This document shows, piece by piece, positions 7,389 to 60,473 of a DNA stretch of 64,000 bases. Made by a program: the position numbers and the translations under genes. Positions within the stretch are counted from its first letter, which is position 1, and the number at the start of each line of letters is the position of its first letter. The notes under the pieces were generated by a model. The model did not search any database. It was not told the DNA's origin and saw only the letters and a list, made by a program, of their open reading frames with translations. The stretch lies in NCBI GenBank assembly GCA_963764495.1, contig CAVXSR010000005.1:74206-138205 (forward strand), written 5' to 3'. Origin of the DNA: Vicinamibacteria bacterium. Lineage in GTDB: Bacteria > Acidobacteriota > Vicinamibacteria > Vicinamibacterales > JAENWD01.

Positions 7389-7394
7389 CGTTAT

Positions 7395-10381: not shown

Positions 10382-10435
10382 GGCGCGACTTTAGTCGCGC
10401 CTGACGTCAGGCCGCACTAAAGTGCGGCCCTACTG
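10376..10435. repeat. family A hairpin dimer (CAGTAGGG..CCCTACTG)
   Basis: It contains the hairpins ggcgcgacTTTAgtcgcgcc and ggccgcacTAAAgtgcggcc. Both termini carry the TAG stops of the convergent flanking genes. Confidence 0.9.
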
Positions 10436-10983: not shown

Positions 10984-11095
10984 GCGGGGCTAAAGCCCCG
11001 CCTCCACGTTGACGGCCGGGCTAAAGCCCGCCTCCATTGAGGGCCGGGCTAAAGCCCAGCCTCCGCATCGACGACAGACTGAAGCCCCACCTCAC
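10984..11095. repeat. tandem array of four family A units (GGGCTAAAGCCC-GCCTCCAC type)
   Basis: Units start at about 10984, 11015, 11043 and 11075, with progressive degeneration. Confidence 0.75.
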
Positions 11096-13799: not shown

Positions 13800-14003
13800 A
13801 GCAGGAGATGGCCCCGGCGTGCCGTGTGGGGAGGTCGTTTGAACCTGCGAAAGCAGGTGGAACCGCTGTTTGAAAACCGCCCGTCAGGCTTCCTCGCGGC
13901 GGAGGCGTGCACACGGGGCGGCGTCGCGATTCACTTGGGTCTAGCGTTGGCTCAAGCGACTCTCCTGAGCCATCACGAGCACCCCAGGGCCGTTCCTATT
14001 CTA
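13800..14003 (-). ncRNA. ssrS: candidate 6S RNA
   Basis: It lies in a 375 bp ORF-free gap directly downstream of zapA on the same strand, which is the E. coli zapA-ssrS arrangement. A closing stem pairs GGCCCUGGGGUG (13991-13980) with CACGCCGGGGCC (13821-13810), giving a 182 nt core. A second stem pairs GGAGAGUCG with CGACCUCC. A hairpin ACCUGC-UUUC-GCAGGU (13858-13843) followed by UCAAA resembles the 3' bubble hairpin of E. coli 6S. Confidence 0.5.
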
Positions 14004-14669: not shown

Positions 14670-14711
14670 CGCATACCTCAGATTTCGGAATCTATGAATG
14701 AATGCCTGGCT

Positions 14712-14790
14712 GTACGTAGGCCCGAGCTTTAGCTCGGGCATCAACGATCCGCCCTTCGGCTTGCCCAAGCTAAAGCGTGGGCCTACGTGC
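14712..14790. repeat. family A MITE-like composite (GTACGTAGGCCC..GGGCCTACGTGC)
   Basis: It has the same two hairpins and termini as 1167-1240, with a different 21 nt linker. Confidence 0.85.
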
Positions 14791-14797
14791 ATCAAAC

Positions 14798-16912
14798 TTA
14801 ACGCCGCACCGCGCCGTGTGCGTCCGCGAGCGCGGAGACCACTGTGTCCATCGCGGCGTCGACCTCGGCGTCGGTCAGCGTGCGATCGGGCGCCTGGAAG
14901 GTCAGGCGATACGAGAGGCTGACGCGCCCCTCGGGCACGCCCTTGCCCACGTACCGATCGAATTCCGCCAGCCGCACCAGCGTCGCCGGCGCCACCGACC
15001 GAATCGTGCCACGAACGTCGGCGGCGGGCAAGACGTCAGCGACGAGAATCGACAGGTCGCGCACGATTGCGGGGAAGCGCGGCAGCGCGTGTGTGGTCGC
15101 GACGTCCAGCATCGTGACGAGATCGGTGACGGCGTCGAGGTCGAGCTCGGCGAGATACACCTCGTCCTGGCTCGGGATGTCGCGTGACGCGGCAAGCGCA
15201 GGCAGGAGCTGGCCGACGACACCGAACACGCGGGTGGAACCATCGCCCGCATCGGCGAGGATCTCCGCCGTCCGTCCCGGCGACAGGAACGGTCGCGTCG
15301 CCGGCTGGGCCGACAACGTCAACCCCATCGCGGCGCCAAGTTCCTCCACGATGCCTTTCAGGTCGAAGAAGTCGACCGTCCGGGTCCGCTCGCTCCAGTG
15401 CTCGGCGTGGCCGGCGCCGAGCCAGCCCAGGGCGAGCGTGCGCCGCTCGCCGCTCGATTGCAGGAACCGCGTGCCGAGCTCGAACAGGCGGACGTCGCGC
15501 TGACCGTGGCGGCGGTTGTGGCTCAGCGAGTCCACGATGCCGGGCAGGAGCGAAGGCCGCAGCACGGCGAAGGTTTCCGAGAGCGGGTTGGCGATCGCGA
15601 CGCCCTCGCCGGGCTCGCCGAATTCGTCGGCCGACCGCTCGCCGATGAACGAGAACGTCACGCACTCGTTGAAGCCGGCGGCCGTCGCCAGCCGGCGCAG
15701 CGCGCGGTTCTGCTCGAGTCGCTCGTCGGGTCGGGCCGGCGCCTTCAGCACGGGCGGGAACGTCGTCGGCAGCCGGTCGTAGCCGTAGTGGCGGGCAATC
15801 TCTTCGATCAGATCGACGTCGCGGGAGACGTCGATGCGCCATGAGGGCACCGAGACGAGCCAGCTCGAGGGCCCCTGTTCGGCGACCAGGAACCCGAGGC
15901 CGCGAAGAATGCGGCGGATTTCGTCGAGCGCCACCGGCGCGCCGAGGACGTGCGCCGCTCGGTCCGGGTCGAACCGCACAATCGTCGGCGGCCGGACGGC
16001 CGGGCACGCGTCGATCCATCCGGCGCGGATGGTGCCGGCGCCGATCTGCGTAATCAGCGCGCACGCGCGCGCGAGGGCCTCCGAGGCGGCGGCGAAGTCG
16101 GCGCCGCGCTCGAAGCGATACGACGCTTCGGTCGAGAGGCCGAGGCGCTTCGAGGTGCGGCGAATCGACGACGGGAGGAACCAGGCGCTCTCGATCGCGA
16201 TCGTCCTGGTCGCCGCGGACACCTCGCTGTCCCCGCCACCCATGACGCCGGCCAGCGCCTGGGCGCGCGACTTGTCGGCGATCACAAGCATCTCGGGGTC
16301 CAGCGTGCGCTTCTGGCCGTCGAGGGTGGTCAGCGCTTCGCCGGGTCGCGCCGTGCGGATTCGGAGCTCGGAGCCGTCGAGCCTGGCGAGATCGAAGGCG
16401 TGAAGCGGATGCCCGAGCTCGAGCAGCACGTAGTTCGTGATGTCGACGATGTTGCTGATCGAGCGGACGCCGGCGGCGGTCAGGCGCTCGGCGAGCCAGG
16501 TGGGAGACGGGCCGATGGTGACGTCCGCCAGCGCCACGCAGTAGCGCGGGCAGCGGACGGGGTCCTCGATGGTGACAGTCAGCGGGCCCGCTTTCGTCGG
16601 GTCAGGCGCGCCGAGGTCCGCGACCGCGGGCGAACGCAGCGTCGTCCCGTACTTCGTCGCCACCTCGCGCGCGATCCCGATGATGCTGAGACAGTCGGGT
16701 CGATTCGCGGTGATCTCGAAGTCAATTACCGCATCAGGTACGTCGAAATCCGTACCATTGGGGACAGGCACCAAGCCCGGTGGGGCTTCGTACCTGTCCC
16801 CAACCTCGACGGAGGCGACCTCGAAGCCGGCCATGTGGAGATCCTGGGCCAGCGTCGCGATGTCGACCGGGATCTCGACGAGCTCGCGCAGCCACGAGAC
16901 GAGGACCTTCAC
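14798..16912 (-). CDS. pheT: phenylalanine--tRNA ligase beta subunit (short form lacking the N-terminal OB/tRNA-binding domain)
   Basis: GTG 16912 overlaps the pheS TGA (GTGA). The protein begins VKVLVSWLRELVEIPVDIATLAQDLHMAGFEVASVEV and contains ..ITANRPDCLSIIGIAREVA.. . The 902 aa ORF in the track is read-through into pheS. Confidence 0.85.
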   Translation of the reverse strand: MKVLVSWLRELVEIPVDIATLAQDLHMAGFEVASVEVGDRYEAPPGLVPVPNGTDFDVPDAVIDFEITANRPDCLSIIGIAREVATKYGTTLRSPAVADLGAPDPTKAGPLTVTIEDPVRCPRYCVALADVTIGPSPTWLAERLTAAGVRSISNIVDITNYVLLELGHPLHAFDLARLDGSELRIRTARPGEALTTLDGQKRTLDPEMLVIADKSRAQALAGVMGGGDSEVSAATRTIAIESAWFLPSSIRRTSKRLGLSTEASYRFERGADFAAASEALARACALITQIGAGTIRAGWIDACPAVRPPTIVRFDPDRAAHVLGAPVALDEIRRILRGLGFLVAEQGPSSWLVSVPSWRIDVSRDVDLIEEIARHYGYDRLPTTFPPVLKAPARPDERLEQNRALRRLATAAGFNECVTFSFIGERSADEFGEPGEGVAIANPLSETFAVLRPSLLPGIVDSLSHNRRHGQRDVRLFELGTRFLQSSGERRTLALGWLGAGHAEHWSERTRTVDFFDLKGIVEELGAAMGLTLSAQPATRPFLSPGRTAEILADAGDGSTRVFGVVGQLLPALAASRDIPSQDEVYLAELDLDAVTDLVTMLDVATTHALPRFPAIVRDLSILVADVLPAADVRGTIRSVAPATLVRLAEFDRYVGKGVPEGRVSLSYRLTFQAPDRTLTDAEVDAAMDTVVSALADAHGAVRR

Positions 16913-17994
16913 AGCGAGAACTGCTCCAGGAAGCGAAGGTCGTTCTCGTAGAACAGCCGAATGTCCTCGACGCCGTACATCAGCAGCGCGAGCCGCTCGA
17001 TGCCGACGCCGAACGCGAAGCCGGTGATCCGCACCGGGTCGTAGCCGACGGCCTCGAACACCGCGGGATGGACCATGCCGCTGCCGAGGACCTCGATGAA
17101 CCCGGTGCGCTTGCACATCGCGCAGCCGCTGCCCCTGCACTGCTGGCAGCCGATGAAGACGTCGGCGCTCGGTTCGGTGTAGGGGAAGAAGCTGGGACGA
17201 AAGACGACGGGCGTGTCGGCCGTGAACAGCTCGCGCAGGAAGCCGATGATCGTCCCCTTCAGGTCGGCCAACGTGACCCCTTCGCCGACGACGAGCCCTT
17301 CGACCTGCTGGAACATGGGGGTATGGGTGAGGTCGAGGTTGTCGCGGCGATAAACGCGGCCGGGCGCGATGATGCGCACGGGCGGCTCGTGGGTCTCCAT
17401 GTAGCGGATCTGCATCGCCGACGTGTGCGTGCGCAGGAGCGTGGCAGGCTTTTCTCGCGGGGCTGAAGCCCCGCCGCCACTTGCAGTCTGTGCCGGCCGC
17501 GACCACGGCTGCTTCAGGTACAGCGTGTCCTGCATGTCGCGCGCAGGATGCTCCGGCGGCATGTTGAGCGCTTCGAAGTTGTGCCAGTCGTCTTCGGTTT
17601 CCGGGCCGTCGAGGATCTCGTACCCCTGCCTGGCGAAGATGTCTTCGATGCGCGTGCGGAGGGCCGTCAGCGGATGCATCCGCCCGATCGCCGGCCGACG
17701 TCCCGGGAGGGTGACATCCACCGATCCCATCGGCGCGCGCGACGCTTCGAGCGCCGCGCGTTTCTCGTCGAGCGCGGTCTCGATCTCGCGCTTCAGCTCG
17801 TTGGCTTGGCGCCCGAGGATCGGGCGCTCGTCAGCCGGGACGCCGGCGACCTCCTTGAGGAGCGCTGCGACGGCCCCGCCTTTACGACCGAGATAGCGAT
17901 CCCTCAGGACCTTCACATCGGCGTCAGATCTGGCCGTTGCGAGCTCGCCGGCAAACTGCGCTCGCAGCTGTTCGACAGGAGAGGAAGGAGACAC
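16909..17994 (-). CDS. pheS: phenylalanine--tRNA ligase alpha subunit
   Basis: It contains ..MPPEHPARDMQDT..LLRTHTSAMQIRYM..FRPSFFPYTEPS.. and uses a GTG start. A hairpin repeat is embedded in-frame at 17457-17490. Confidence 0.9.
   Translation of the reverse strand: MSPSSPVEQLRAQFAGELATARSDADVKVLRDRYLGRKGGAVAALLKEVAGVPADERPILGRQANELKREIETALDEKRAALEASRAPMGSVDVTLPGRRPAIGRMHPLTALRTRIEDIFARQGYEILDGPETEDDWHNFEALNMPPEHPARDMQDTLYLKQPWSRPAQTASGGGASAPREKPATLLRTHTSAMQIRYMETHEPPVRIIAPGRVYRRDNLDLTHTPMFQQVEGLVVGEGVTLADLKGTIIGFLRELFTADTPVVFRPSFFPYTEPSADVFIGCQQCRGSGCAMCKRTGFIEVLGSGMVHPAVFEAVGYDPVRITGFAFGVGIERLALLMYGVEDIRLFYENDLRFLEQFSL
17457..17490. repeat. family A hairpin plus terminus remnant embedded in pheS
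   Basis: The sequence is gcggggcTGAAgccccgc followed by cgccacttgcagtctg (compare ..ctactgcagtctg at 7498). It encodes ..AQTASGGGASAPRE.. . Confidence 0.7.
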
Positions 17995-17999
17995 GATGC

Positions 18000-18178
18000 A
18001 GTGCTAAGTGCCGAGTGCTAAGTGCTAAGTGGAGTGGGAAGTGGAAAGTGCAGAGTGATGGGTTCTACTTCCGGACGGGCGCAAGGGTCACGACGGGGGC
18101 AAGTCGTAGGACCAACCCCCCACTTGTCACTGTTCAGTCTCAACTCCACTTGGCACTTTGCACTTAGCACTTGGCACT
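18000..18178. repeat. family C long hairpin (arms of AGTGCNA heptamers), copy 1
   Basis: The left arm reads agtgcta agtgccg agtgcta agtgcta agtggag.. and the right arm reads ..ccacttggcactttgcacttagcacttggcact. It fills the whole rplT-pheS spacer. Confidence 0.85.
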
Positions 18179-18181
18179 GCT

Positions 18182-18544
18182 TCAGTGGGCCGCGGCCGTG
18201 TCTCTAATCTGCGCGGCCAGCTTGCCGAATGCGGCCGCGTCGCGGGCAGCGATCTCGGCGAGCGCCTTGCGGTCGAGGGCGATGCCGGCGCGCTTCAGGC
18301 CGGCGATCAGATCGCGATAGGTCAGGCCATGCTCGCGCGCGGCGGCGTTGATGCGGACGATCCACAGGCGGCGGAAGTCGCGCTTCTTGTTGCGGCGGCC
18401 GACGAAGGCATACTTGAGCGCCGTGTCGCCCGACTCTTTGGCCGCGCGGTACAGCTTGCTCTTGTTGCCGAACATTCCTTTCGTCCGCGCCAGCAGCTTC
18501 TTCCGCTTCGCCCGACGAACCGTTCCACGCTTGACTCTAGGCAT
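18182..18544 (-). CDS. rplT: 50S ribosomal protein L20
   Basis: The protein begins MPRVKRGTVRRAKRKKLLARTKGMFGNKSKLYRAAKE.. . Confidence 0.95.
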   Translation of the reverse strand: MPRVKRGTVRRAKRKKLLARTKGMFGNKSKLYRAAKESGDTALKYAFVGRRNKKRDFRRLWIVRINAAAREHGLTYRDLIAGLKRAGIALDRKALAEIAARDAAAFGKLAAQIRDTAAAH

Positions 18545-18561
18545 TGCCTGCTCCCAATTCG

Positions 18562-18723
18562 ACCGAGCTAAAAGCTCGGTCCTACGTACGCTCTTCGTAG
18601 CCCCACGTCGTCTGCAGTAGGGCCCGACTTCCGCCTTCGCCGAGGCTTCGGCGGACCGCCGTAGCTTTAGCGGAGGCTGGTCAGTCGGGCCGGCACTGGC
18701 TGCACTAAAGTGCGGCCCTACTG
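18562..18723. repeat. family A cluster; the dimer at 18615-18723 carries a 51 nt nested insert in a hairpin loop
   Basis: The structure is ggcccgacTT[18631-18681 insert]CAgtcgggcc. It lies between rplT and rpmI. Confidence 0.85.
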
Positions 18724-18740
18724 CGGTCTGTCGCTATCCG

Positions 18741-18938
18741 CTATGCGTACGGCAACATCCGCTTCAGCCGATCCTGGTCCTGCTCGGCGACCTGGATGGT
18801 GCCGCGGAGCGACCGCTTCCGCTTGGTCGTCTTGCTGGTCAGGATGTGCCGCTTGAACGCGGACGCCCGACGAAACTTGCCGCCGGCGGATTTCTTGAAC
18901 CGCTTGGCGGCGCCCCGATGTGTCTTCAGCTTCGGCAT
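18741..18938 (-). CDS. rpmI: 50S ribosomal protein L35
   Basis: The protein begins [42 protein letters not shown].. . It lies in the same frame as infC with no intervening stop. Confidence 0.9.
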
Positions 18939-19598
18939 GTTCCCTAACTCTCGTTTCCCGGCGTGTCCGCCGGCGGTTGCGCGCGTCCCGGCGCCCACGC
19001 CGGCCGGTTGCGCAGCTGCCCGACGCGGCGCGTCGGCTGTCCCCTTGGTTCCCTTGCCCGATCGCTGCGCCAGAATCGTGTGCATCTGATTGCCTTCCTG
19101 GCGCGGCGCCGATTCCACGATCGCCGCCTCTCCCAGTTCGCCGATCAGGCGCTCGAGGATGCGGCGGCCGATCTCGGGGTGGGCCATCTCGCGGCCCCGG
19201 AAGAAGATCGTCGCCTTCACCTTGTCGCCGTCGGCGAGGAAGCGCTCGATGTGCTTCTTCTTGAACTGGTAATCGTGCTCGTCCACCTTCGGACGGAACT
19301 TGATTTCCTTGACTTCGATGATCCGCTGGTGCTTCTTCGCCTCGCGCGCGCGCTTCTGCTCCTGGTACTGATACTTCCCGTAATCCATGATCCGGCAGAC
19401 CGGCGGCACGGCGGTGGGGGAGATCTCGACCAGGTCGAGGCCCTTCTGACGAGCGATCGTCAGCGCCTGGGGCGGCGGCATGATGCCCAGCTGCTGCCCC
19501 GCATCGTCGATAACGCGCACTTCGCGCACCCGGATGCGTTCGTTCACGCGCACCCGATCGTCACGTCTGGGGCCTCTCGACCCGCGATCAAAAGCGAT
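18939..19598 (-). CDS. infC: translation initiation factor IF-3 (non-AUG ATC start; no in-frame stop before rpmI)
   Basis: It contains ..[53 protein letters not shown].. . GGGAGG plus 5 nt precedes ATC at 19598. The frame runs on through an Ala/Gly-rich tail into the rpmI ATG. Confidence 0.8.
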
Positions 19599-19626
19599 AA
19601 CTGCCTCCCAGGTTAGCCAGAGCGCC

Positions 19627-21552
19627 CTACTTTCTGTCTCGCACGTCGGCGAGCGCGGCCGAAACGAAGGCTTCGACGGGTTGGGCGCCCTGGTCCCCAC
19701 CCGCACGCGTCCGCACGGCGACCGTCCCTTCAGCCGCCTCGCGGTCCCCTATCACCAGCATGTATGGGATCTTCTGAAGCTGCGCTTCGCGAATTTTATA
19801 CCCGATCTTCTCCTGCCGCTCGTCGACCTCGGCCCGCAGCCCGGCCGCGTCCAGCCGCTGCTGTGTGGCCCGTGCGTAGTCCAGGTGCCGGTCCGCAATC
19901 GGCAGGAGCCGAACCTGCAGGGGCGCCAGCCACAGCGGAAACGCCCCGCCAAAATGCTCAATCAGGAGGGCAATGAACCGCTCGAAGCTCCCGTAGATCG
20001 CGCGGTGGATGACCACCGGCCGGTGCTCGGCGTTGTCGGCGCCGATGTACTTCAGGTCGAACCGCTCCGGCATCTGGTAGTCGAGCTGAATCGTCGCGCA
20101 CTGCCACTTGCGGCCCAGGGCATCCGTCACATCGAAGTCGATTTTCGGACCGTAGAACGCGCCGTCGCCGGCGTTAATCGTGTACGCCTGGCCGGCGTTC
20201 TCGAGCGCCTGTTGCAACGACGCCTCGGCGCGATCCCACGTCGCGATCTCGCCCATGAATTCGTGCTCGGGGCGCGTCGAGAGCTTGGCGGTGGACTCGA
20301 GCCCGAAATCCGCATACACGCGCTGTACGAGCTTCAACAGCGACTCGACCTCGGACGCGATCTGATCCTCGGTCACGAAGCAGTGCGCGTCGTCTTGCGA
20401 GAACTGACGGACGCGCGTCAGCCCGGACAGGACGCCGGACGCCTCGTTGCGGTGCAGCGGCGTCTGCTCGTGCAGGCGGATCGGCAGATCGCGATAGCTC
20501 CGGACCTCGCTGGCGAACACCAGCATGTGGCCGGGGCAGTTCATCGCCTTCACCGCCATCGCCTCGTTCTCGGATTCGACGAGGAACATGTTCTGGCGAT
20601 AGTGCTGCCAGTGCCCCGACGTTTCCCAGAGCGCCTTGTTGTAGATGAGCGGCGTCTTCACCTCGTCGTAGCCGGCGGGGAAGAGCACTTCGCGCATGTA
20701 GTTCGCCAGCGTGTTGTAGAGCAGCGTGCCCTTGCGCAGCCAGAACGCCGCGCCCGGCGCCCACGGATGAAACATGAAGAGGCCGGTCTCGCGGCCCACC
20801 TTGCGGTGATCGCGCTTCTTCGCTTCTTCGATCTGCGTGAGATGGGCCTTCAGCTCCTTGTCGGAGAAGAATGCCGTGCCGTAGACGCGCTGCATCGGCG
20901 CGTTCTTCGCGTCGCCCTTCCAATACGCGTTCGACGTCGTCAGCAGCTTGAACGCCTTCAGCTTGCCGGACGACGGCACGTGCGGACCGACGCAGAAGTC
21001 GATGAACGTGTCCTTGTCCTTGATCGTGTAGCAGGACACGTGCGACTGGCCTTCCGTCTTCTCGTCGATCAGCTGCACCTTCAGCGGCTCGCCGCGCTGT
21101 TTGAAGAACGCGCGCGCCTCGTCGCGCGGCCACAGCTGCCGCTCGTAAGGCAGGTTCGCCGCCGCCAGGTCGCGCATCTTCTGCTCGATCGCGTCGAGAT
21201 CCTCGGGCACGAACGGCCGGCTGACCACGAAATCGTAGAAGAATCCTTCGTCTGTCGCCGGGCCGATCCCGCACTGCGTGCCCGGAAAGAGCGCCGTGAC
21301 CGCCGCCGCCATCAGGTGCGCGGTGCTGTGGCGATAGAGATGAAGGGCTTCGGGGCTTTTCTCGGTGACAATCCGCACGTGCGCATCGGCCGTCAGGGGA
21401 TGCGACAGATCGACGAGCCGGTCGTCCACGACCGCCGCCAGCGCCGCCTCGGCGAGCCGCGGAGAGATCCCGGCCGCAACCGCGGACACAGCCGTCCCGG
21501 ACGCGACGGCCTTTTGTGAGCCGTCGGGCAGCGTGATTGTGACCTGACTCAT
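19627..21552 (-). CDS. thrS: threonine--tRNA ligase
   Basis: It begins [13 protein letters not shown].. (TGS domain) and carries class II motifs such as ..FRRDNLD-like/..[11 protein letters not shown].. . An alternative upstream ATG exists at 21594. Confidence 0.9.
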
Positions 21553-21629
21553 TGCGACTGTTGGCACCTTGCCGTCACTCAGGCCCGACATCACTTCCGC
21601 GACTGCCGGTCAGGCCAAACGGCAAAAGG

Positions 21630-21706
21630 TGGTAGGCACGGGCAGACTCGAACTGCCGACCTCCTGCGTGTCAGGCAGGCGCTCTAACCAACTGAGCTAC
21701 GCGCCT
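21630..21706 (-). tRNA. tRNA-Val (anticodon GAC)
   Basis: The minus strand reads AGGCGCGTAGCTCAGTTGGTTAGAGCGCCTGCCTGACACGCAGGAGGTCGGCAGTTCGAGTCTGCCCGTGCCTACCA. It folds as a cloverleaf with a 7 bp acceptor stem, anticodon loop CUGACAC, T-loop TTCGAGT and an encoded CCA. Confidence 0.95.
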
Positions 21707-21741
21707 CTAGGCGTCCAGGACGGGCTCTGAGACGAACGACC

Positions 21742-21771
21742 AGTATAACAACGCCCTGGAAGAGGCGTCAA
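21742..21771 (-). promoter_or_regulatory. sigma70-type promoter for tRNA-Val (and possibly thrS)
   Basis: The minus strand reads TTGACG-18 nt-TATACT and ends about 35 nt upstream of the tRNA 5' end. Confidence 0.6.
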
Positions 21772-21797
21772 TCGTCGGGGCGGGCCTTATCTCGTGT

Positions 21798-21826
21798 TGG
21801 AGCGGGGCTTTAGCCCCGCCTCCCAA
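21798..21826. repeat. family A hairpin downstream of hup
   Basis: The sequence is ttggaGCGGGGCTTTAGCCCCGCctccca. Confidence 0.8.
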
Positions 21827-21840
21827 CGCAGGGGTTGTCC

Positions 21841-22113
21841 TCAGCGGACGGCCTTCTTGAGGGCGGTGCCGGCGGAGAACCGTACGACGCGCCGCTTCGG
21901 CACCTTGATGGCGGCCCCGGTCTGCGGGTTCCTGGCCATCCGCGCTTTGCGCATCGAGGTTTTGAAGGTGCCAAACCCGACGAACGTGATCGAGTCGCCC
22001 TTCTTGAGCGCCTTGGTGATGCCCTCGATGAACGAATCAACCACTGTCGACGCCGAGCTCTTTGACAGCTCCGCGTCCTTCGCGATCTTGGCGACGAGAT
22101 CCTGTTTGTTCAT
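21841..22113 (-). CDS. hup: HU family DNA-binding protein
   Basis: The protein begins MNKQDLVAKIAKDAELSKSSASTVVDSFIEGITKALKKGDSITFVGFGTFKT..RNPQTGAAIKVP.. . An AAGGAGG SD precedes the start. Confidence 0.9.
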   Translation of the reverse strand: MNKQDLVAKIAKDAELSKSSASTVVDSFIEGITKALKKGDSITFVGFGTFKTSMRKARMARNPQTGAAIKVPKRRVVRFSAGTALKKAVR

Positions 22114-22196
22114 GTGATCCTCCTTAGGGGATGGACGATGCGGCAACGAGTTCCAGAAGCGCGATCGAACGAACGCGCTTCCGGAAAACGTCACGC

Positions 22197-22226
22197 GTTA
22201 TACGTGACGCCAAAGATCAGTGTCAA
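22197..22226 (-). promoter_or_regulatory. sigma70-type promoter for hup, with a palindrome across the -10 box
   Basis: The minus strand reads TTGACA-18 nt-TATAAC. The -10 is embedded in the inverted repeat CGTCACG-cgttata-CGTGACG. Confidence 0.55.
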
Positions 22227-22281
22227 GGATAATCGCGGCGGGTTTGCGCGCGCGTCGGCGCGCGCACGTCGATTAGGTACG

Positions 22282-23454
22282 CTACGCGGCCGCCTTCGCC
22301 GGCGTTTCAATCCGCTCGATCGCTTTCTCGAGAATCGGATCGCCGGTTGGCGGCGTGGCGCCGAACTCGACTTCGGGTTCGGCAACGGCCACGTCGGGTG
22401 CGAGGCCCTTCTCGTGGATCGCCGTGCCGTTTGGCGTCAGGTAGCGCACCGTCGAGATCCACAAACCGCTGCCGTCAGGCAGCCGTACGAGCTCCTGCGT
22501 CGCGGCGCGGCCCAGCGTGTGCTCGCCAATCATCTCGGCGCGCTTGTGGCCCGAGAGCGACGCCGCAAAGATCTCGGCGGCCTGCGACGTGCCGTTGTCC
22601 ACCAGCAGCACCACGGGGACGGTAATCGCGCCATCACCGGCGGCCGCCCCGATATCACGCTTGGCGTCGTTGCGCGACTCGCGGCTGGTGATGATGCCCT
22701 CACTCACGAACAGCCGCGCCGGGGCCACACCCAGTTCCGGGGCGCCTTCGGCCGTGGCGCGCAGGTCGAGGATCACGTGCTTCGCGCCGTCTTTGGTCAG
22801 CGAGGTCACCTGCTGCTTCAGATCGGCTGGCGTCCGATCGTTGAAGCCGGCGACGCGCACGAGGCCAATCCCAGGCTTGACGATCTTGCCCGACACCATC
22901 GCGGCGGACGCCTCGTCCCGCGTGATCTCGACCACGTGCGGTTCGGCCGCATTGCCGCGAATCACGACCAGCTTCACCTTGGTGCCCGGCGCCCCGCGCA
23001 GCAGACCCATGCCTTCGAACACCGACATCTCGCGCGTCGGCTTGTCGTCGATGGCGCGAATAAAATCGCCAGTGCGAAGGCCGGCGCGCGCGGCGGGCGA
23101 GCCGTCGCGCGCGGAGATGACGCGCAGGTAGTACTGACGCGTCAACTCGACGCCGATCGAGCCCTTCGGCGGGGCGCCCTTGCCGAGTTTCGTAACGTCC
23201 GCCGCCGTCAGCCACGCGCAGTCGGGATCGAGGCCTTCCGCGAGGCCGCGCATCGCGCCGTTCATGATCTTGTCGGCCTCGACCTGCTCGACGTAGTTGT
23301 TCATCACGAGCGACACCACGTCGTCGAACACGCGCAGGTGCTGATACGGAGTGTCGGCCGGCGGAATCGTGCGGCTCAGGACGGCTCCGACCACGACCAG
23401 AAGGAGGAGCGGAACCGATATCAGCAGGACGAGCAGTCGCGCGCGAGAAGTCAT
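22282..23454 (-). CDS. S41 (C-terminal processing peptidase) family protein with non-canonical catalytic positions
   Basis: It has an N-terminal TM helix, a PDZ segment and an S41 core (..LLVDNGTSQAAEIFAASL..IGEHTLGRAATQ..YLTPNGTAIHEKGLAPDV). The canonical motifs GSAS*ASE and TFGK*G read GTSQAAE and TLGRAA here. Confidence 0.75.
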   Translation of the reverse strand: MTSRARLLVLLISVPLLLLVVVGAVLSRTIPPADTPYQHLRVFDDVVSLVMNNYVEQVEADKIMNGAMRGLAEGLDPDCAWLTAADVTKLGKGAPPKGSIGVELTRQYYLRVISARDGSPAARAGLRTGDFIRAIDDKPTREMSVFEGMGLLRGAPGTKVKLVVIRGNAAEPHVVEITRDEASAAMVSGKIVKPGIGLVRVAGFNDRTPADLKQQVTSLTKDGAKHVILDLRATAEGAPELGVAPARLFVSEGIITSRESRNDAKRDIGAAAGDGAITVPVVLLVDNGTSQAAEIFAASLSGHKRAEMIGEHTLGRAATQELVRLPDGSGLWISTVRYLTPNGTAIHEKGLAPDVAVAEPEVEFGATPPTGDPILEKAIERIETPAKAAA

Positions 23455-23464
23455 GAAACGCCCT

Positions 23465-24577
23465 TCAGAAGCGGGATTTCAGCCATTGTAACGGGTCCAC
23501 CGCCTTGCCGTCGACGCGGACCTCGAAGTACAGGACCGCCAGTCCCGTGGGCGAGACGCCAACCTCACCCACTCGTCCCCCCTTTTCGACCCGGTCACCT
23601 TTATTGACGGCAATCGTCGACAGGTAGCCGTAGAGCGTGTAGATCTGTGCACCGTGATCGACGATGACGAGGTTGCCGAAGCCGGTGAAGGGGGCGGCGT
23701 AGGCGACCGTGCCCTCGTGGACTACCGCGACGGCACGGCGCAGGGGCGACCCGATCTCGATGCCACTCCGATTGACCGCCGTCCCGAACTTCGAGATCGA
23801 GCCGCGGCCGAAGGGGGCGATTACCCGGCCCGTCACCGGCCACTCGAGCGCGCCCTGGAACGGGCGAATCGGCAGTGCGGTCGCGCCGGACGGGAGCGCC
23901 GCCACCGCGGCCGTGAGCTTCTGCTGTGCGGACTGCAGCTCGCCGGCAAGCTGGGCGTTGAGATCGCGCCTCGCGTCGATTTCGTTGATCAGCGCGCTTC
24001 GCGCCCGGACGGCGGATGCGGCGTCAACCGCGGCGCGGCGCGCATCGGCCTCCAGTGTTGCGGCCCGCTCGCGGCGTGCGTGCAGGTCGGCCTTCACCTT
24101 GCGGAGCGATTCAACTGTCGACGCGTGCGCACGCACTCGCTCACGATCGCGGGCGGCGAGCGAGGCGACTGCGCGGTACGCGCGCCCCATCTCGCGCACA
24201 TCGTCCACGCTGAAGAGGAGTCGGACGTAGCCGCCGCTTCCGAGCTTGTAGAGCTCGGCGAGACGACTGGAGAGGCCGGGGATTTCGGCCGACTGCCGCT
24301 GCTCCAGCGCGTCGAGCCGGGCGACCGTTGCGTTCAGCTCGTCGTTGGCCGCGGCGAGCGATTTCTCGGCGTCCCGCTGCACCGCGAGCCGGATGTCGCG
24401 ATCGAGCTCGAGCCGCCGCAAATCGACCAGCAGCGATTTCTCTCGTGCCGCCAGTGCATCGGCTTCCTCACGGAGAGAGCGCAGCCGATCAGCGGTCCGT
24501 TGCTGAGCGTCCTGGGCAGTCAGTGGCAAGGACAGTGCGGCCGCAATGACCAAGACAAGATGCGGCCTCGAGGACAT
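23465..24577 (-). CDS. EnvC-like murein hydrolase activator (coiled coil plus degenerate LytM/M23 domain)
   Basis: It has a signal peptide, about 230 aa of coiled coil and a C-terminal M23 fold (..GNLVIVDHGAQIYTLYGYL..GEVG..LYFEVRVDGKAVDP). Metal-ligand positions are altered (HxGID reads RSGIE). ATG 24577 is preferred because the upstream 12 codons are repeat sequence. Confidence 0.75.
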   Translation of the reverse strand: MSSRPHLVLVIAAALSLPLTAQDAQQRTADRLRSLREEADALAAREKSLLVDLRRLELDRDIRLAVQRDAEKSLAAANDELNATVARLDALEQRQSAEIPGLSSRLAELYKLGSGGYVRLLFSVDDVREMGRAYRAVASLAARDRERVRAHASTVESLRKVKADLHARRERAATLEADARRAAVDAASAVRARSALINEIDARRDLNAQLAGELQSAQQKLTAAVAALPSGATALPIRPFQGALEWPVTGRVIAPFGRGSISKFGTAVNRSGIEIGSPLRRAVAVVHEGTVAYAAPFTGFGNLVIVDHGAQIYTLYGYLSTIAVNKGDRVEKGGRVGEVGVSPTGLAVLYFEVRVDGKAVDPLQWLKSRF

Positions 24578-24591
24578 CGGTGGACTATCGT

Positions 24592-24756
24592 AGTGCAAAG
24601 TGGCAAGTGCCAACTGCCAAGTGGAGTGAGGAGTGGGAAGTGATGAGTGATGGGCAAGGCCTCAGGGGAGCGTTTACCCGAGCGGTGATTCTTGTCTCCA
24701 CTGCCCCCTTCCTATTTTTCATTCCACTTGGCACTTAGCAGTTAGCACTTGGCACT
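24592..24756. repeat. family C long hairpin, copy 2
   Basis: The left arm reads agtgcaa agtggca agtgcca actgcca agtggag.. and the right arm reads ..ccacttggcacttagcagttagcacttggcact. It lies in the envC-like/ruvX divergent region. Confidence 0.85.
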
Positions 24757-24779
24757 GTGAGTGTCTGTTACCATGCCCT

Positions 24780-25247
24780 GTGCGAGTAGTGGGCATCGAC
24801 TTCGGCCTGCGCCGCATCGGCCTGGCAGTGAGCGATGCGACGGGCGTACTGGCGCGACCGCTGCAAACCCTGGAGCGCGGTCAGGGCCAGTCGGATGCGG
24901 ACGTCGTTGGCGCCGTGCTGCGTGTGGTGTCCGATCTGATAGCGTCAGGCGAGACTGTGGACGCGATCGTGCTGGGCTTGCCACGCCGCCTCGATGGGAC
25001 GCCGAACGACCAGACCGCGATCGTCGAGCGGTTCGCGACGCGGCTGCGGGACGCCACCACGCTTCCGGTGCACCTGCAGGACGAGCGGCTCACCAGCCAC
25101 GAGGCCGAGTCCCGATTGGCGACACGAGAACGCGACTGGCGAAAACGCAAGGCCCGGCTCGACGCCGCCGCCGCCGCCATCATCCTGCAGGACTATCTGG
25201 ACGCGCACGCGGCGATTCCCGCCTGGCATCCTGACGACATCGAGTGA
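24780..25247 (+). CDS. ruvX: Holliday junction resolvase-like protein RuvX/YqgF
   Basis: The protein begins (GTG)RVVGIDFGLRRIGLAVSD.. and contains ..LGLPRRLDGT.. . Confidence 0.85.
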   Translation: MRVVGIDFGLRRIGLAVSDATGVLARPLQTLERGQGQSDADVVGAVLRVVSDLIASGETVDAIVLGLPRRLDGTPNDQTAIVERFATRLRDATTLPVHLQDERLTSHEAESRLATRERDWRKRKARLDAAAAAIILQDYLDAHAAIPAWHPDDIE

Positions 25248-26275
25248 TGCGTCGACTGATCCTGGTCGTGGTGGCCATCGCCGCGCTCGCTGCAGCCGTG
25301 GCTGGTGTCTACTATGCCCGAGTCGACGAGCGATACCGTGGCTATACGGGCACCGAGCGGTTCGTCGAGATCGCCCCCGGCACCGGTTCGCGGGCGATCG
25401 GGAAGGCCCTCGTCGACGCCGGCGTCGTGCGCGACGAATGGACGTTCCGGCTTGCGGTGTTGCTGACGGGTACACAACGTGAGCTGAAGGCGGGCGAGTA
25501 TCGCTTCACCACGCCGGCATCCGCCAAGGACGTGGCACGGAAGCTGGCCCGCGGCGATGTCTTCCTGCGGCCGATTACCTTCCCCGAGGGCCTCTCGGTG
25601 AAGGAGATGGCCAGCATTTACGAGTCGCGCGGGCTGGGCACGTCGGCGGCGTTTCTCGCGGCGGCGCGCGACACCAGCGCCGTGAAGGCGCTCGATCCGG
25701 CCGCCCGAGATCTCGAAGGTTACCTCTTCCCCGACACGTACAACGTCCCCCGCAAGATGAACGCGCATGCGCTGGTGCGGCAGATGGTGCAGGCATTTCT
25801 GCGCGTCTACGGTGAGACGGTGCAGAGGGAGGTTGACGCGCGCGGGGGCACGCTGCGTGAGGTCGTGACCCTGGCGTCACTCGTCGAAAAAGAGGCCGCG
25901 CAGCCGGAGGAGCGGCCGATCATCGCGGCGGTCTATCAGAATCGGCTGCGGATCGGGATGGGCCTGCAGTGCGATCCCACCGTCATCTACGCGCTCGAGA
26001 AAGCAGGACGCTATACCGGCAACCTGACGAAAGCCGACCTCAGGATCGACTCGCCGTACAACACCTACAAGTACGCCGGCCTGCCGCCCGGTCCCATCGC
26101 GTCGCCGGGCCGCGCCTCGCTGGAAGCCGCGACGCGTCCGGCCTCAGTGGACTATCTGTACTTCGTCAGCCGCAACGACGGCAGCCACGTGTTCGCGACG
26201 ACGCTGGCCGAGCACAACAAGAACGTCAAACAGTGGCAGGTCGATTTCTTCAAAGACAAAAAAGCGAGTCAGTGA
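25244..26275 (+). CDS. mltG: endolytic murein transglycosylase MltG (YceG family)
   Basis: It has an N-terminal TM helix and contains ..LKAGEYRF.., ..ASLVEKEA.., ..PIIAAVYQNRLRIGMGLQCDPTVIY.. and ..SPYNTYKYAGLPPGPI.. . Confidence 0.9.
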   Translation: MMRRLILVVVAIAALAAAVAGVYYARVDERYRGYTGTERFVEIAPGTGSRAIGKALVDAGVVRDEWTFRLAVLLTGTQRELKAGEYRFTTPASAKDVARKLARGDVFLRPITFPEGLSVKEMASIYESRGLGTSAAFLAAARDTSAVKALDPAARDLEGYLFPDTYNVPRKMNAHALVRQMVQAFLRVYGETVQREVDARGGTLREVVTLASLVEKEAAQPEERPIIAAVYQNRLRIGMGLQCDPTVIYALEKAGRYTGNLTKADLRIDSPYNTYKYAGLPPGPIASPGRASLEAATRPASVDYLYFVSRNDGSHVFATTLAEHNKNVKQWQVDFFKDKKASQ

Positions 26276-26284
26276 TTCGGGGCT

Positions 26285-26348
26285 GCAGTCCCGCAGTCCC
26301 GCAGTGCTGCGGTGCGTGCTGAGTGCGGCCGTGCTGTGGCAGTGACGC
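26285..26348. repeat. octamer micro-array (GCAGTCCC x2, then degenerate GYRGTGCN units)
   Basis: The units read gcagtccc gcagtccc gcagtgct gcggtgcg tgctgagt gcggccgt gctgtggc, immediately after the mltG stop. Confidence 0.55.
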
Positions 26349-26779
26349 GGATCTAGGGGTTTATCCGCACAGCGGAACATTATTCTGCCCTCGTGCCGTT
26401 GCGACGATGGCGCGAATGGGCATTCGCTGTGATCACGACCAGCGGCATGTCGAGCCTTCGCCGGCTGGCTCTCACCTCGGCCGCGCTCTCCGGCAAATGA
26501 ATGGCCTCACTCGCGGCGGTTTGATACGTGGAGGTACGGAAAGCCGTGGCGCGCGCGAACCGCCGAACTGATGGTGCGAGCGAGTTCGGCGCGGGACCAA
26601 ACGACACGCCCAAGATTCGAAACACTCCAAAGAGGACAGGATCGGCACGAACGGCGCGATCGGTGGCAGGTGGCGGCCAGGCGGTGGATTCGCCGCCAGG
26701 TTGCTGCAAGCCCGATCAGCGTGCGCCGGGTCCACCGCCACATGCCACTTGTCCTGGGCTTGTCGTGCAATCGCTTTCG

Positions 26780-26838
26780 CAGCAGGGCGCGACTTCAGTC
26801 GCGCCGAACAATGGCCCGACTGAAGTCGGGCCCTACTG
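26780..26838. repeat. family A hairpin dimer (CAGCAGGG..CCCTACTG)
   Basis: It contains the hairpins ggcgcgacTTCAgtcgcgcc and ggcccgacTGAAgtcgggcc, 5 nt from the nadK stop. Confidence 0.9.
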
Positions 26839-26843
26839 CCGTC

Positions 26844-27716
26844 CTAGTTCCCCCACCCCAACTTCGCCCGCAACGTATCGAAGTACCCGCGCGACGTGGA
26901 GCTGACGAGGCGGACTGGCGACTTGGCTCGCCGGATGCGCACGCTGTCGGTAGCTTCGAGGCGATGGCCGCTCTGACCGTCGAAGGTCGAGTAGACGTCG
27001 TAGCCTCGCGCGTCGAGCGGCGCCACATCGACGGTCGCGTTTCCCGGAATGACGATGGGGCGGTTCGCCAGCGTGTGCGGGGCGATCGGCGTGATCAGGA
27101 TCGCGTCCACTTCGGGGTGCACGATCGGCCCGCTGGCCGCGAGGTTGTACGCCGTTGACCCCGTCGGGCTCGCGATGATGATGCCGTCTGCCTTCACCCG
27201 CGTCACGAACCGCCCATCCACGCTGACGCTCAACTCGATCACGCGCGAGACCTCACCGCGGGTGACCACCACGTCATTGAGGACCACGTGCTCGGCATGA
27301 GGGTGACCGCCTCGTAGCGTCACGGCGTGCAGCAGGCGCCGCTCGTGGATCTGTGCCCGACCGGCAAGCACCGCCTCCAGTTCGGGATACAACTCCTCGA
27401 GCGTGACTTCGGTGAGGAAACCCAGCCGGCCGAAGTTCACGCCCAGGATGGGCGTCGATAACCCCGCTTCGCCTACTCGTGCCGCCGTGCCCAGCATCGT
27501 CCCATCGCCGCCGAGGACCAGCAACAGGTCGACCTGCGCGACCAGTTGATCGCGCGCCAGCGTCGGCTCGTTGGACAGTCCCGCCAGCGCGGCGGTCTTG
27601 ATCTCGAAGATGGTCTCGACGCCACGCGCGTGCAGCCATCCGGCGACGGCCGCGAGGTGCGGGGCCGCCGCGGTGAGGCCATCCTTCGCGATGATGCCCA
27701 CGCGCGTCACCGTCAT
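26844..27716 (-). CDS. nadK: NAD kinase
   Basis: It contains ..LLLVLGGDGTMLGTAR.., ..GVNFGRLGFL.. and ..IASPTGSTAYNLAASGPIV.. . Confidence 0.9.
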   Translation of the reverse strand: MTVTRVGIIAKDGLTAAAPHLAAVAGWLHARGVETIFEIKTAALAGLSNEPTLARDQLVAQVDLLLVLGGDGTMLGTAARVGEAGLSTPILGVNFGRLGFLTEVTLEELYPELEAVLAGRAQIHERRLLHAVTLRGGHPHAEHVVLNDVVVTRGEVSRVIELSVSVDGRFVTRVKADGIIIASPTGSTAYNLAASGPIVHPEVDAILITPIAPHTLANRPIVIPGNATVDVAPLDARGYDVYSTFDGQSGHRLEATDSVRIRRAKSPVRLVSSTSRGYFDTLRAKLGWGN

Positions 27717-28450
27717 GCGGCGCTCCGCAGGTGCAGCAGGAACTCCTGGTTGCCGGTCGCGCCGGTAATCGGGGACGGCGTCATCGCCACAGGCTCCAAT
27801 CCTACTGCACGCGCTGCGGCGCGGATCTCGTCGACGACCCGCTCGTGGATGGCCGAATCGAGCACGAGGCCGCCCTCGCCGACATCCTCGCGCCCGGCCT
27901 CGAACTGCGGCTTGACCAGGGCGATCACATCGGCCTGCAATGCCAGCGTCGCAGGCACTACGGGCAGGATGTGCCGGAGCGAGATGAACGACACATCGAT
28001 GGTCACGATATCAACCGGCCCAGGCAGATCAGCGGCCTTGAGAAACCGCGCATTGACGTGCTCGAGCACGACGACCCGCGGGTCGGTGCGAAGGCGCCAA
28101 TCGAGCTGGCCGTGGCCCACGTCGAGGGCGACCACCTGGCGGGCGCCGCGCTGGAGCAGCACGTCGGTGAACCCGCCCGTGGACGCGCCGATGTCGAGCG
28201 CGGCCCGCCCGCGCGCATCAATCGCAAACGTGTCGAGGGCGTGCGCCAGCTTGAGGCCGCCGCGGCCGACGTACGGGTGATCCGGTGTGATCAGCGTGAT
28301 CTCGGAATCGGCCGGCACGCTCGTTCCGGCTTTGGTGACAGGTGTTCCGTTGACCCGCACCTGCCCCGCCATGATGAGCGCCCGGGCGCGCTCGCGCGAC
28401 GGGGCGAGCTGGCGTTCGACGAGGAGCAGATCGAGGCGTTGGCGGGACAT
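27713..28450 (-). CDS. tlyA: TlyA family rRNA 2'-O-methyltransferase
   Basis: It begins MSRQRLDLLLVERQLAPSRERARALIMAGQVRVNG (S4 domain), followed by an FtsJ-type SAM fold (..LDIGASTGGFTDVLL..). The upstream part of ORF 27713..28537 is repeat sequence. Confidence 0.85.
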   Translation of the reverse strand: MSRQRLDLLLVERQLAPSRERARALIMAGQVRVNGTPVTKAGTSVPADSEITLITPDHPYVGRGGLKLAHALDTFAIDARGRAALDIGASTGGFTDVLLQRGARQVVALDVGHGQLDWRLRTDPRVVVLEHVNARFLKAADLPGPVDIVTIDVSFISLRHILPVVPATLALQADVIALVKPQFEAGREDVGEGGLVLDSAIHERVVDEIRAAARAVGLEPVAMTPSPITGATGNQEFLLHLRSAA

Positions 28451-28460
28451 GGCCGAAACG

Positions 28461-28615
28461 TGGCAGTGCCAAGTGCTAAGTGCGAAGTGCGAAGTGCCAA
28501 GTGGAGTGGGAAGTGGCAAGTGGACAGTGAGGGGCAACCCCTGAGGTGTTGCCCCTCACTCACCACTATTCACTCTTCACTCCACTTAGCACTTCGCACT
28601 TAGCACTTGGCACTA
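28461..28615. repeat. family C long hairpin, copy 3 (most regular)
   Basis: The left arm is agtgcca agtgcta agtgcga agtgcga agtgcca agtggag.. . The centre is agtgaggggcaac-ccct-gaggt-gttgcccctcact. The right arm is its complement minus one heptamer. It fills the xseB-tlyA spacer. Confidence 0.9.
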
Positions 28616-28867
28616 TTTCGTCTCTCCCAGTCCCGGCGGCGCGGGCTTGAGGTCGCCGCGCTCGTTCAGGATCTCGATGCGGCGCTCGGCCTGCTCGAGG
28701 CGCGAATGGCAGAACCGGGACAGCTCGACGCCGCGTTCGTAGAGCGCGAGCGACGACTCGAGCGTCAGGTCGCCGTCTTCGAGGCGTTTGACGATCGACT
28801 CGAGCTCGGTCAGCGCGGCCTCGAAGTCCTTGATCGTCTCGATCGGGGCGGAATCCTTGATCGTCAT
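28613..28867 (-). CDS. xseB: exodeoxyribonuclease VII small subunit
   Basis: It contains ..FEAALTELESIVKRLEDGDLTLESSLALYERGVELSRFC.. . Confidence 0.9.
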   Translation of the reverse strand: MTIKDSAPIETIKDFEAALTELESIVKRLEDGDLTLESSLALYERGVELSRFCHSRLEQAERRIEILNERGDLKPAPPGLGETK

Positions 28868-31632: not shown

Positions 31633-31696
31633 CTGGGGACAGGCCCCAATCAATAGCGAGGTTGGGGCCTGTCCCCAGGGTGGGGCCTGTCCCCAG
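31633..31696. repeat. family E (CTGGGGACAGGCCCC) inverted plus direct copies
   Basis: The 15-mer occurs at 31633-47 and its complement at 31664-78 and 31682-96. Confidence 0.8.
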
Positions 31697-33718: not shown

Positions 33719-33721
<3 letters not shown>

Positions 33722-33848
33722 GGCGCATGGGCACATGGGTTCATGGGCGCATGGGTTCATGGGCGCATGGGGACGGGCGTCGGGGTTGACCGAGCGTTCC
33801 CTCTGCGCTCATGCGCCTATGCCCTCATGCGCCTATGCCCTGATGCGC
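33719..33848. repeat. family B long hairpin, copy 2
   Basis: The left arm reads TAAGGCGCATGGG cacatggg ttcatggg cgcatggg ttcatggg cgcatgggg and the right arm reads ..ctcatgcgcctatgccctcatgcgcctatgccctgatgcgc. It lies between dnaK and hsp20. Confidence 0.75.
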
Positions 33849-34745: not shown

Positions 34746-36458
<1,713 letters not shown>

Positions 36459-50578: not shown

Positions 50579-50590
50579 GCCCGGTGATGT

Positions 50591-60471: not shown

Positions 60472-60473
60472 GC

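Follow-up and report, generated by a model that had tools for sequence, protein, structure and literature searches.

Inverted arrays of AGTGCNA heptamers as a putative palindromic repeat family near stop codons in soil Vicinamibacteria

Three imperfect palindromes of 150-180 bp, with arms built of tandem AGTGCNA heptamers, lie in intergenic spacers of a 64,000-nt (64 kb) stretch of Vicinamibacteria DNA (contig CAVXSR010000005.1; hereafter the window), and, judged by sequence comparison, they are copies of an abundant, previously undescribed palindromic repeat family of Vicinamibacteria-class soil Acidobacteriota. This classification as a repeat family, taken without any action, appears highly probable. 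A fuller reading, which we favour by a modest degree, is that of a palindromic repeat resembling repetitive extragenic palindromes (REPs) or MITEs (miniature inverted-repeat transposable elements) that would act as a bidirectional hairpin right after the stop codon. The three copies, E1 to E3, are:

E1 (copy 1): 18000 to 18178, transcribed on the minus strand, in the rplT-pheS spacer; left arm at about 18000-18064, centre at about 18065-18113, right arm at about 18114-18178
E2 (copy 2): 24592 to 24756, in the divergent spacer between an M23 peptidase gene (minus strand) and ruvX (plus strand); an inverted-repeat pair of arms at about 24583-24649 and about 24699-24765
E3 (copy 3): 28461 to 28615, transcribed on the minus strand, in the xseB-tlyA spacer, with an extra heptamer in one arm; the heptamer part spans 28465-28614, which corrects earlier bounds

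Tandem Repeats Finder detects period-7 arrays in both arms of each copy, and the motif AGTGCNAAGTGCNA, allowing at most one mismatch, has 20 matches in the window against 0.13 expected from shuffles, all 20 of them within E1-E3. Taken as inverted-repeat pairs, the arms measure 67-73 nt, with a complementarity of 72-83%. Predicted folds of the three copies reach -88.9, -87.3 and -113.9 kcal/mol (z = -8.1, -7.8 and -14.4), and all shuffles are weaker in every case. These results bear out the initial annotation, made from the letters of the window alone, which had described three hairpins with AGTGCNA-heptamer arms at these positions and a register slip of one heptamer in E3; the slip appears in the E3 fold as a 7-nt (heptamer-sized) bulge. 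Its further statement that the centres are unrelated to one another is only partly true, and fails for E2 and E3, which have GGGCAA..CCTCAGGGG in common (15 of 17 bases, in opposite orientation, with an equal score in none of 500 shuffles), as well as for the recurring centre classes of the family described below. A regular-expression sweep of the window returned no further copies or solo arms, and no Rfam model matched E1-E3 at its gathering score, the window matches being confined to a tRNA gene (21633-21706, minus strand) and a 6S RNA (13807-13993, minus strand, 67.9 bits). At relaxed E-values, E1-E3 match only eukaryotic microRNA-precursor models, far under threshold.

Repetitive arms invite the suspicion of collapsed or chimeric repeats, and they are all that speaks for an assembly artefact. 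E1-E3 are also found, identical in sequence or almost so, in six independent assemblies from ENA and JGI (L001-L006) at 94-99.9% identity, and the element occurs in dozens of further contigs, so an artefact of this kind is ruled out for practical purposes.

The family extends well beyond the window. Its sequence pattern, AGTGCNAAGTGCNAAGTGGAGTG (a 23-mer with 21 specified bases), was scanned against metagenome contigs and returned at least 120 stretches, mostly on JGI (Ga-numbered) contigs from soil; from these and the window, 67 distinct two-armed elements were taken, on which the family statistics rest. Together with elements in metagenome-assembled genomes (MAGs) of Vicinamibacteria, these stretches supply the further copies on which the initial annotation had staked its claim of a family. 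Element length ranges from 89 to 214 bp with a median of 165. In two Vicinamibacteria MAGs (L010 and L100), elements at non-orthologous loci align end to end with all of E1-E3, at an identity of about 70%, and a genome scan with the family junction pattern gave these two and one contig binned as Chloroflexota among the matches listed. The family motif in L010 and L100 most likely places the source of the window in the Vicinamibacteria (Acidobacteriota), on the evidence of the repeat and not of a marker-gene tree. A full-text literature search with the arm sequences returned only unrelated primers and probes and no description of the family. Viral contigs yielded 21 matches, with hairpins in two only, which is uninformative on phage carriage.

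Across the 67 elements, the anatomy follows a common plan. The outer AGTGCNA units have six fixed positions (AGTGC_A) and a free N, and four is their commonest number (39 of 67 on each arm; four on both arms in 25 of 67 elements). They are followed by the junction AAGTG-GAGTG (AGTGGAG), a 5-nt unit that shifts the phase and is present in 51 and 47 of 67 arms, then by two to four purine-rich AGTGRNN (AGTG(G/A)NN) inner heptamers, by a closing unit, AGTGGTGGC or AGTGAGGGG, and finally by the centre. As inner or closing unit, AGTGGTGGC or AGTGGTTGC is found in 30 of 61 copies, the centres come from a few recurring classes (one with CGGTCAGATCGTCG, another with GAGGGGCAAC..CCTCAGG), and the element ends read (T/G)G(C/A)-AGTGC, the hyphen marking the boundary. 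Because unit number, the 5-nt junction and the inner units are kept family-wide, the arms cannot be regarded as free-running microsatellites, and the conserved irregularities, namely the phase shift, the inner units and the shared centre bases, argue for common descent rather than independent microsatellite growth. An independent origin at each locus, by slippage and subsequent template switching that builds the complementary arm, with no common ancestral element, is accordingly very improbable. Slippage is indeed observed, and other short-unit inverted arrays exist, for example GGCGCATG octamers in the window and others in further phyla, but the 5-nt phase shift, the sequence of outer and inner unit types, the closing units and the centre motifs, all of them common to the family, would not re-arise, and the full-length homology of non-orthologous copies largely refutes this origin.

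Most untruncated arms (93 of 116) have a partner, with a median span of 142 nt, and about 20% are solo arrays. As separate observations, in L126 (356-474) and L137 (2398-2500) a 48-nt block of family heptamers is present in 2-3 tandem copies upstream of a gene for a small membrane protein, and a complementary arm is missing.

Equally characteristic is the placement of the elements relative to genes. Genes on the metagenome contigs were called with a codon-usage caller trained on the window, which recovers most public gene calls on a syntenic contig, misses rpmI and puts the pheS start 78 nt later, and individual distances therefore carry error. All 67 elements are intergenic and none lies inside a gene. 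Where both neighbours were called (n = 51), 31 spacers are co-directional, 17 convergent and 3 divergent, against 13% convergent and 14% divergent among all adjacent gene pairs of the same sequences (chi-square p = 5e-5); elements are thus enriched in convergent spacers and rare in divergent ones. Element ends face a stop codon in 69 cases and a start codon in 41, at median distances of 5 nt and 19 nt, respectively (Mann-Whitney p = 5e-7). Among the stop-facing ends, 54 of 69 (78%) lie at most 15 nt from the stop and 18 (26%) at -2 to 0 nt, with stops that abut the first heptamer or are completed by it (TGA-AGTGC, TA-AGTGC, T-AGTGC), and the element makes up nearly all of 13 of the 17 convergent spacers. 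This placement accords with the general organisation of the window, in which neighbouring genes overlap by 1-4 nt or, in most non-overlapping spacers, have between them strong hairpins that begin 0-10 nt past the stop; T-runs are rare, and hairpin-plus-T terminators are not enriched (9 against 7.4 expected).

The genes that flank E1-E3, identified by Pfam matches on near-identical public contigs, agree with the contexts named in the initial annotation (rplT-pheS, xseB-tlyA and a divergent spacer):

rplT (ribosomal protein L20): 18182 to 18544, minus strand, PF00453; stop codon 3 nt before E1
pheS (Phe-tRNA synthetase alpha): 16909 to 17994, minus strand, PF01409 and PF02912; GTG start 5 nt past E1
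M23 peptidase gene: 23465 to 24577, minus strand, PF01551; ATG 14 nt from E2
ruvX (yqgF): 24780 to 25247, plus strand, PF03652; GTG 23 nt from E2
xseB: 28613 to 28867, minus strand, PF02609 (Exonuc_VII_S); TAG stop overlaps the first E3 heptamer
tlyA-like S4/FtsJ methyltransferase gene: 27713 to 28450, minus strand, PF01479 and PF01728; ATG 10-14 nt past E3, depending on which E3 end is taken

At the two co-directional sites, the fit between element and genes is close. The E1 stem begins 1 nt past the rplT stop and finishes 3 nt ahead of the pheS GTG, at which the coding-type substitution pattern begins in comparison with L252, where the next in-frame GTG (17916) is GTC. At E3, the first AG of the element completes the xseB TAG stop (28613-28615), the stop lies within the base of the stem, and at 3-18 nt past the element, depending on the lineage, comes the tlyA ATG, while the xseA/xseB and tlyA/nadK junctions of the same gene chain are 4-nt overlaps. 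No Shine-Dalgarno (SD)-like motif precedes the pheS GTG or the tlyA ATG, and more generally such a motif is found in 1 of 23 genes whose start codons are at most 30 nt away from an element against 19 of 57 window genes (p = 0.009). Several window genes carry a strong -10 box 6-8 nt ahead of the start codon, for example those at 41718-42323 (minus strand; TATAAT 6 nt ahead of the GTG) and 5583-7388 (plus strand), and these boxes, along with the share of genes bearing SD-like motifs (19 of 57), suggest that leaderless mRNAs may be frequent in this organism.

Orthologous spacers, fetched via RplT and XseB cluster members of related lineages, reveal that the copies are long-lived at given sites, where they have been remodelled by heptamer slippage, flips between the arms and centre swap or deletion. 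The rplT-pheS element occupies the same site in all related lineages examined; its 5' arm has 3-4 units, its 3' arm beside pheS is almost invariant, and in L256 and L257 about 58 nt of the centre have been deleted with the locus kept. All relatives examined likewise keep the xseB-tlyA element in place, with a TAG that always overlaps the first heptamer, centres of different classes in different lineages, and a loop that is flipped between the window and L266/L269. Heptamer number, which the initial annotation had proposed to compare between strains, does differ: E3 holds one TCGCACT unit more than its counterparts in L001 and L002, and L127 and L244 are two CCCACTA units apart in one arm only. 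Between strains whose flanks are 99-99.7% identical, E3 is 86.5-90% identical, which corresponds to a divergence more than ten times faster. Among orthologues, most units differ at the free N, with AGTGC_A and the number of four units unchanged, a pattern that indicates either core constraint or strong homogenisation. E2 is present in L002 and L274, whereas at the corresponding position of L001 (3870-4010), a strain 94-99% identical to the window, the ruvX/M23 spacer has no heptamer element; three REP-like palindromes of GTAG type take its place. The L001 M23 peptidase also differs from that of the window in its N-terminal signal region.

Taken together, placement and persistence lead to the following proposal. 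The element would be a symmetrical hairpin just 3' of the stop codon, usable on either strand. Once transcribed, it would fold, at -50 to -115 kcal/mol, into a stem that starts within the footprint of the terminating ribosome and that would act like an Escherichia coli REP, as a barrier to 3'-5' decay and read-through, possibly also braking translation termination. At rplT-pheS and xseB-tlyA, the closed stem would put the upstream stop and the SD-less start only a few nt apart; through this closeness, we propose, an insertion of 150-180 nt could be tolerated with translational coupling unbroken. Such symmetry would also account for the surplus of elements in convergent spacers and for the missing strand bias, since sense and antisense RNA folds in co-directional contexts proved equally stable (17 versus 14, p = 0.28), a result on which an RNA-level strand bias was rejected.

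Several observations weigh against this proposal. Every functional step of it is inferred, and the error in individual gene-call distances applies to the placement. The free N positions form Watson-Crick pairs in 42% and G-T pairs in 14% of cases, against about 30% Watson-Crick by chance, and native arms fold at -76.8 kcal/mol versus -73.7 kcal/mol for swapped arms, a gain of about 3 kcal/mol over chimeras on which copy-specific compensatory pairing was rejected. The near-equal stability of native and swapped arms makes pairing a property of the family consensus. A hairpin-only model gives no account of the solo arms, about 20% of the total. No terminator-like site maps to E1-E3, whose flanks (GCTTCAG after GCACT, GTGAGTG and ATTTCGT) have no T-tract, and classical intrinsic termination is therefore not expected. 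Mobility is also weakly supported. No abutting direct repeat was found at 47 of 65 elements, and the remainder have repeats of 1-2 nt, with one 4-nt case, which is the level of chance. In eight pairs of arms 0.6-2.7 kb apart on short contigs, no transposase was recognised between the arms on reading the translations, no domain search having been run. No near-identical copies turned up at separate loci, as all element pairs of at least 85% identity have common flanks and represent the same locus, by which recent transposition was rejected. The sole presence/absence polymorphism, that of E2 in L001, is weak evidence of mobility.

The eight distant pairs enclose membrane proteins, response regulators and similar host genes, and they possibly represent elements that were split, or solo arms that have captured genes between them. 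Those of L163 (8249-9010), L200 (1340-2114), L126 (451-1458), L214 (397-1725) and L222 (6834-9534) contain ordinary genes, such as small membrane proteins.

The main rival to the hairpin proposal, less likely than it in our estimate, is that the elements are purely selfish or neutral mobile DNA (MITE-like or REPIN-like) with no host function, in which case the post-stop position would mark where a long palindrome is tolerated and site persistence would reflect the difficulty of precise excision. The dispersed nature of the family, its terminal inverted arms and the recurring full-length homology fit this explanation, as do the alternative occupation of the E2 site by the element in some strains and by REP-like palindromes in L001, the rapid divergence of E3 relative to its flanks, the uncompensated free N, the lack of sense-strand bias and the loss of the centre without loss of the locus in L256 and L257. 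The missing target-site duplication, transposase and recent identical copies speak against mobile DNA here too, and further difficulties arise from the constancy in orthologues of six positions of the heptamer and of the number of four units while N is free, which suggests constraint or strong homogenisation, from the near invariance of the E1 3' arm by pheS across lineages, and from the enrichment in convergent spacers of which the element is often the sole content.

A different possibility, and a distinctly less probable one, is a DNA-level or single-strand binding array in which a protein reads the AGTGC core at 7-nt spacing and the hairpin potential is a by-product; a nucleoid-associated or heptad-binding regulator, or an unseen transposase for which the units would be subterminal sites, could be the reader. 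What is conserved is the sequence AGTGC_A and not copy-specific pairing, the unit count is near four per arm, solo arrays lie upstream of genes, and arrays of AGTG-core heptamers recur in other phyla, all of which such a protein would accommodate. There is a precedent in the omega repressor of inc18 plasmids, which binds contiguous 7-bp heptads in direct and inverted arrays. Nevertheless, no candidate protein has been identified, DNA binding does not in itself predict the strict post-stop placement and the depletion from promoter-bearing divergent spacers, and the arms serve as -35 donors at no more than the chance level.

The last point derives from an examination of possible promoters. The CACT arms hold -35-like hexamers (TTGGCA, TTAGCA, TTCGCA) every 7 nt, and -10-like hexamers are frequent 5-8 nt ahead of neighbouring start codons and occur 4-9 nt ahead of about 12 of 26 element-adjacent starts, but in-register spacing in about 5-6 of 12 cases against about 43% expected is at chance, and the arms were rejected as -35 box donors. 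A sigma-54 promoter derived from TGGCAC was likewise rejected on sequence inspection, the 7-nt period being incompatible with GG-N10-GC spacing. As an individual case, a promoter-like site is predicted at 24613-24584 (minus strand), with TTGGCA from the E2 arm, an 18-nt spacer and GATAGT, that ends 6 nt before the M23 peptidase ATG; it would yield a leaderless M23 peptidase mRNA. The initial annotation had further pointed out that E. coli has the pheM attenuator between rplT and pheS. A link of E1 to such an attenuator finds no support, as the spacer is the element itself and contains no run of Phe codons (TTT/TTC) by eye, no formal leader-ORF (open reading frame) search having been made, and no terminator-like site with a T-tract.

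In terms of architecture, which the initial annotation did not recognise from any known system, a precedent exists in the inverted pairs of GGGAATC heptamer arrays of Xanthomonas, and by analogy these are the closest known relatives in form. Xanthomonas genomes contain 70-75 convergent pairs each, made of heptamers with 4-5 fixed and 2-3 free positions and a preference for four units; the repeats lie on average 28 nt from the upstream ORF versus 160 nt from the next one, often overlap the stop, and only 7-8% are found between divergent ORFs (Rehm et al., 2015, PLoS One, PMC4692102). Most are transcribed, transcripts often start or stop there, no link to insertion sequence (IS) elements was seen, Xcc and Xac are reported to have no prominent repeats in common at the same genes, and the inverted pairs were interpreted via G-quadruplex formation (PMC4692102). 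Shared with the present family are the 7-nt units with a fixed core and free positions, the preference for four of them, their convergent arrangement with the capacity to form a stem-loop, their dispersed and intergenic distribution, and their location near or over the upstream stop and rarely between divergent ORFs. The differences are nonetheless considerable. AGTGCNA is not G-rich, and the outer arms cannot form G-quadruplexes: the left arm (plus strand) has one run of at least three G in E1, one in E2 and two in E3, the second run of E1 and E2 being situated at the inner edge by the centre, the outer AGTGCNA units are without a G-run, and four such runs 7 nt apart occur in none of E1-E3. 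In addition, the present element is homologous over its full length and has inner arms, a junction that is fixed and centres that recur; its host belongs to the Acidobacteriota rather than the Gammaproteobacteria; and, in contrast to Xcc and Xac, related lineages retain its copies site by site.

The REPs, bacterial interspersed mosaic elements (BIMEs) and REPINs of Enterobacteria and Pseudomonas resemble the family as extragenic, high-copy imperfect palindromes located mostly 3' of genes and within operons. They also resemble it in the absence of target-site duplication and in the location of many of them at most 15 nt from the stop, where they influence translation and the fate of the mRNA; E. 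coli REPs at this distance make ribosomes stall and reduce expression (Liang et al., 2015, cited in PMC12306157). One site may hold different repeat families in different strains, as at E2 and its L001 counterpart. REPs are linked to RAYT transposases. PMC3733652 describes REPs as 20-40 nt long and often GTAG- or CGTC-tagged, whereas the present elements are about 165 nt (89-214), consist of tandem heptamers and have AGTGC ends without a GTAG or CGTC tag. With MITEs such as Correia/NEMIS and ERIC, the family has in common a length of 100-200 bp, long terminal inverted arms, an intergenic location and predicted long RNA hairpins in operon transcripts; its size falls within the 50-500 bp of MITEs and it has terminal inverted repeats but no target-site duplication, its arms are internally periodic, and the loci examined, on short contigs, yielded no parent IS whose ends match. 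Cyanobacterial short tandemly repeated repetitive (STRR) sequences and the TAACTGA repeats of Beggiatoaceae are also tandem 7-nt intergenic units of variable copy number and resemble the solo arrays that make up about 20% of the arms. They are mainly direct arrays of other units, however, without a conserved full-length element, and among the TAACTGA repeats one inverted case in 170 sets is recorded in the BOGUAY genome, most sets being upstream of start codons (PMC4679880). E1-E3 lastly differ from intrinsic terminators, for which a GC-rich stem together with a T-tract is diagnostic.

The window contains further repeats that merit description in their own right. A second family, with an 8-nt unit, comprises inverted GGCGCATG-like octamer arrays at 9306-9406, 33721-33848 and 37213-37320, with hairpins of -64 to -84 kcal/mol, all three of which start right at the upstream gene's TAA stop. 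REP-like palindromes, separate from the heptamer family, are present at 1166-1241, 7393-7472 and 14711-14791; at 10375-10436, 26779-26839 and 34751-34802; at 50581-50658; and at 10987-11064, as inverted doublets or 28-nt tandems, some of them GTAG-tagged (e.g., GTACGTAGGCCCGAGCTTTAGCTCGGGC and GCAGTAGGGCGCGACTTTAGTCGCGCC). By the gene calls used here, most of those checked are a few nt from a stop codon or slightly over it; the palindrome at 50581-50658 is 3 nt away from the stop of the gene ending at 50578 and is overlapped over about 25 nt by the gene at 50633. Purine-rich heptamer arrays (GAAGGAC/GACGAAG, 4.7 copies) stand alone at 45528-45560 and 50498-50530, with no inverted partner seen, the former starting within the TGA of a gene that ends at 45529. 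Repeats that contain GGGGCCTGTCCCC occur at 31659-31696 and 60474-60522; one consists of an 18-nt tandem; the other, a perfect inverted repeat of 21 nt, takes up the whole of the convergent spacer 60472-60522, at about -1.0 kcal/mol per nt.

On a wider scale, a scan for (AGTGCNA)3 in one genome per species returned at least 119 stretches. Among the 119 matches listed, and counted from record titles, 23 are from Acidobacteriota, 15 from Gemmatimonadota, 14 from Chloroflexota and 13 from Planctomycetota, 65 in all; as the scan was run without a control heptamer, this concentration in certain phyla is a lead rather than a result. About 22 of the 119 loci listed have forward-then-complementary arrays with other free positions, most of them 2-10 nt past a stop called by rough gene prediction. 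Examples of such inverted AGTG-core arrays are three in one 8-kb stretch of a Chloroflexia MAG (L063, 1889-1980, 2609-2670 and 3886-3963) and others in Planctomycetota (L013, L058, L096, L102) and Gemmatimonadota (L012, L116), again mostly 2-10 nt past the stop. It is conceivable, although we consider it rather doubtful, that AGTG-core arrays after stops are a signal common to Acidobacteriota, Gemmatimonadota, Planctomycetota and Chloroflexota, whose 7-nt periodicity would be read by a conserved factor or by the terminating ribosome. If this were true, periodicity and not the G-quadruplex would be the functional feature of the Xanthomonas class as well, and the arrays could serve general 3'-end formation or stop-start coupling in lineages with few SD motifs and few classical terminators.

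Until now, heptamer repeats have been known as over-represented in many bacterial genomes and unexplained, with Xanthomonas as the one detailed study of inverted pairs. The rules described there, namely four units, inversion, placement at the stop and avoidance of divergent spacers, recur here in a distant phylum with a unit that does not form quadruplexes, which moves attention to the 7-nt periodicity and to the post-stop hairpin. At a practical level, the family motif provides a marker for Vicinamibacteria contigs, and heptamer counts, flips and centre swaps are potential characters for strain typing. For the biology of these bacteria, the rplT-pheS and xseB-tlyA copies constitute natural test cases, in which the element may either keep coupling across an insertion of 170 nt or set the expression ratio of the cistrons on its two sides.

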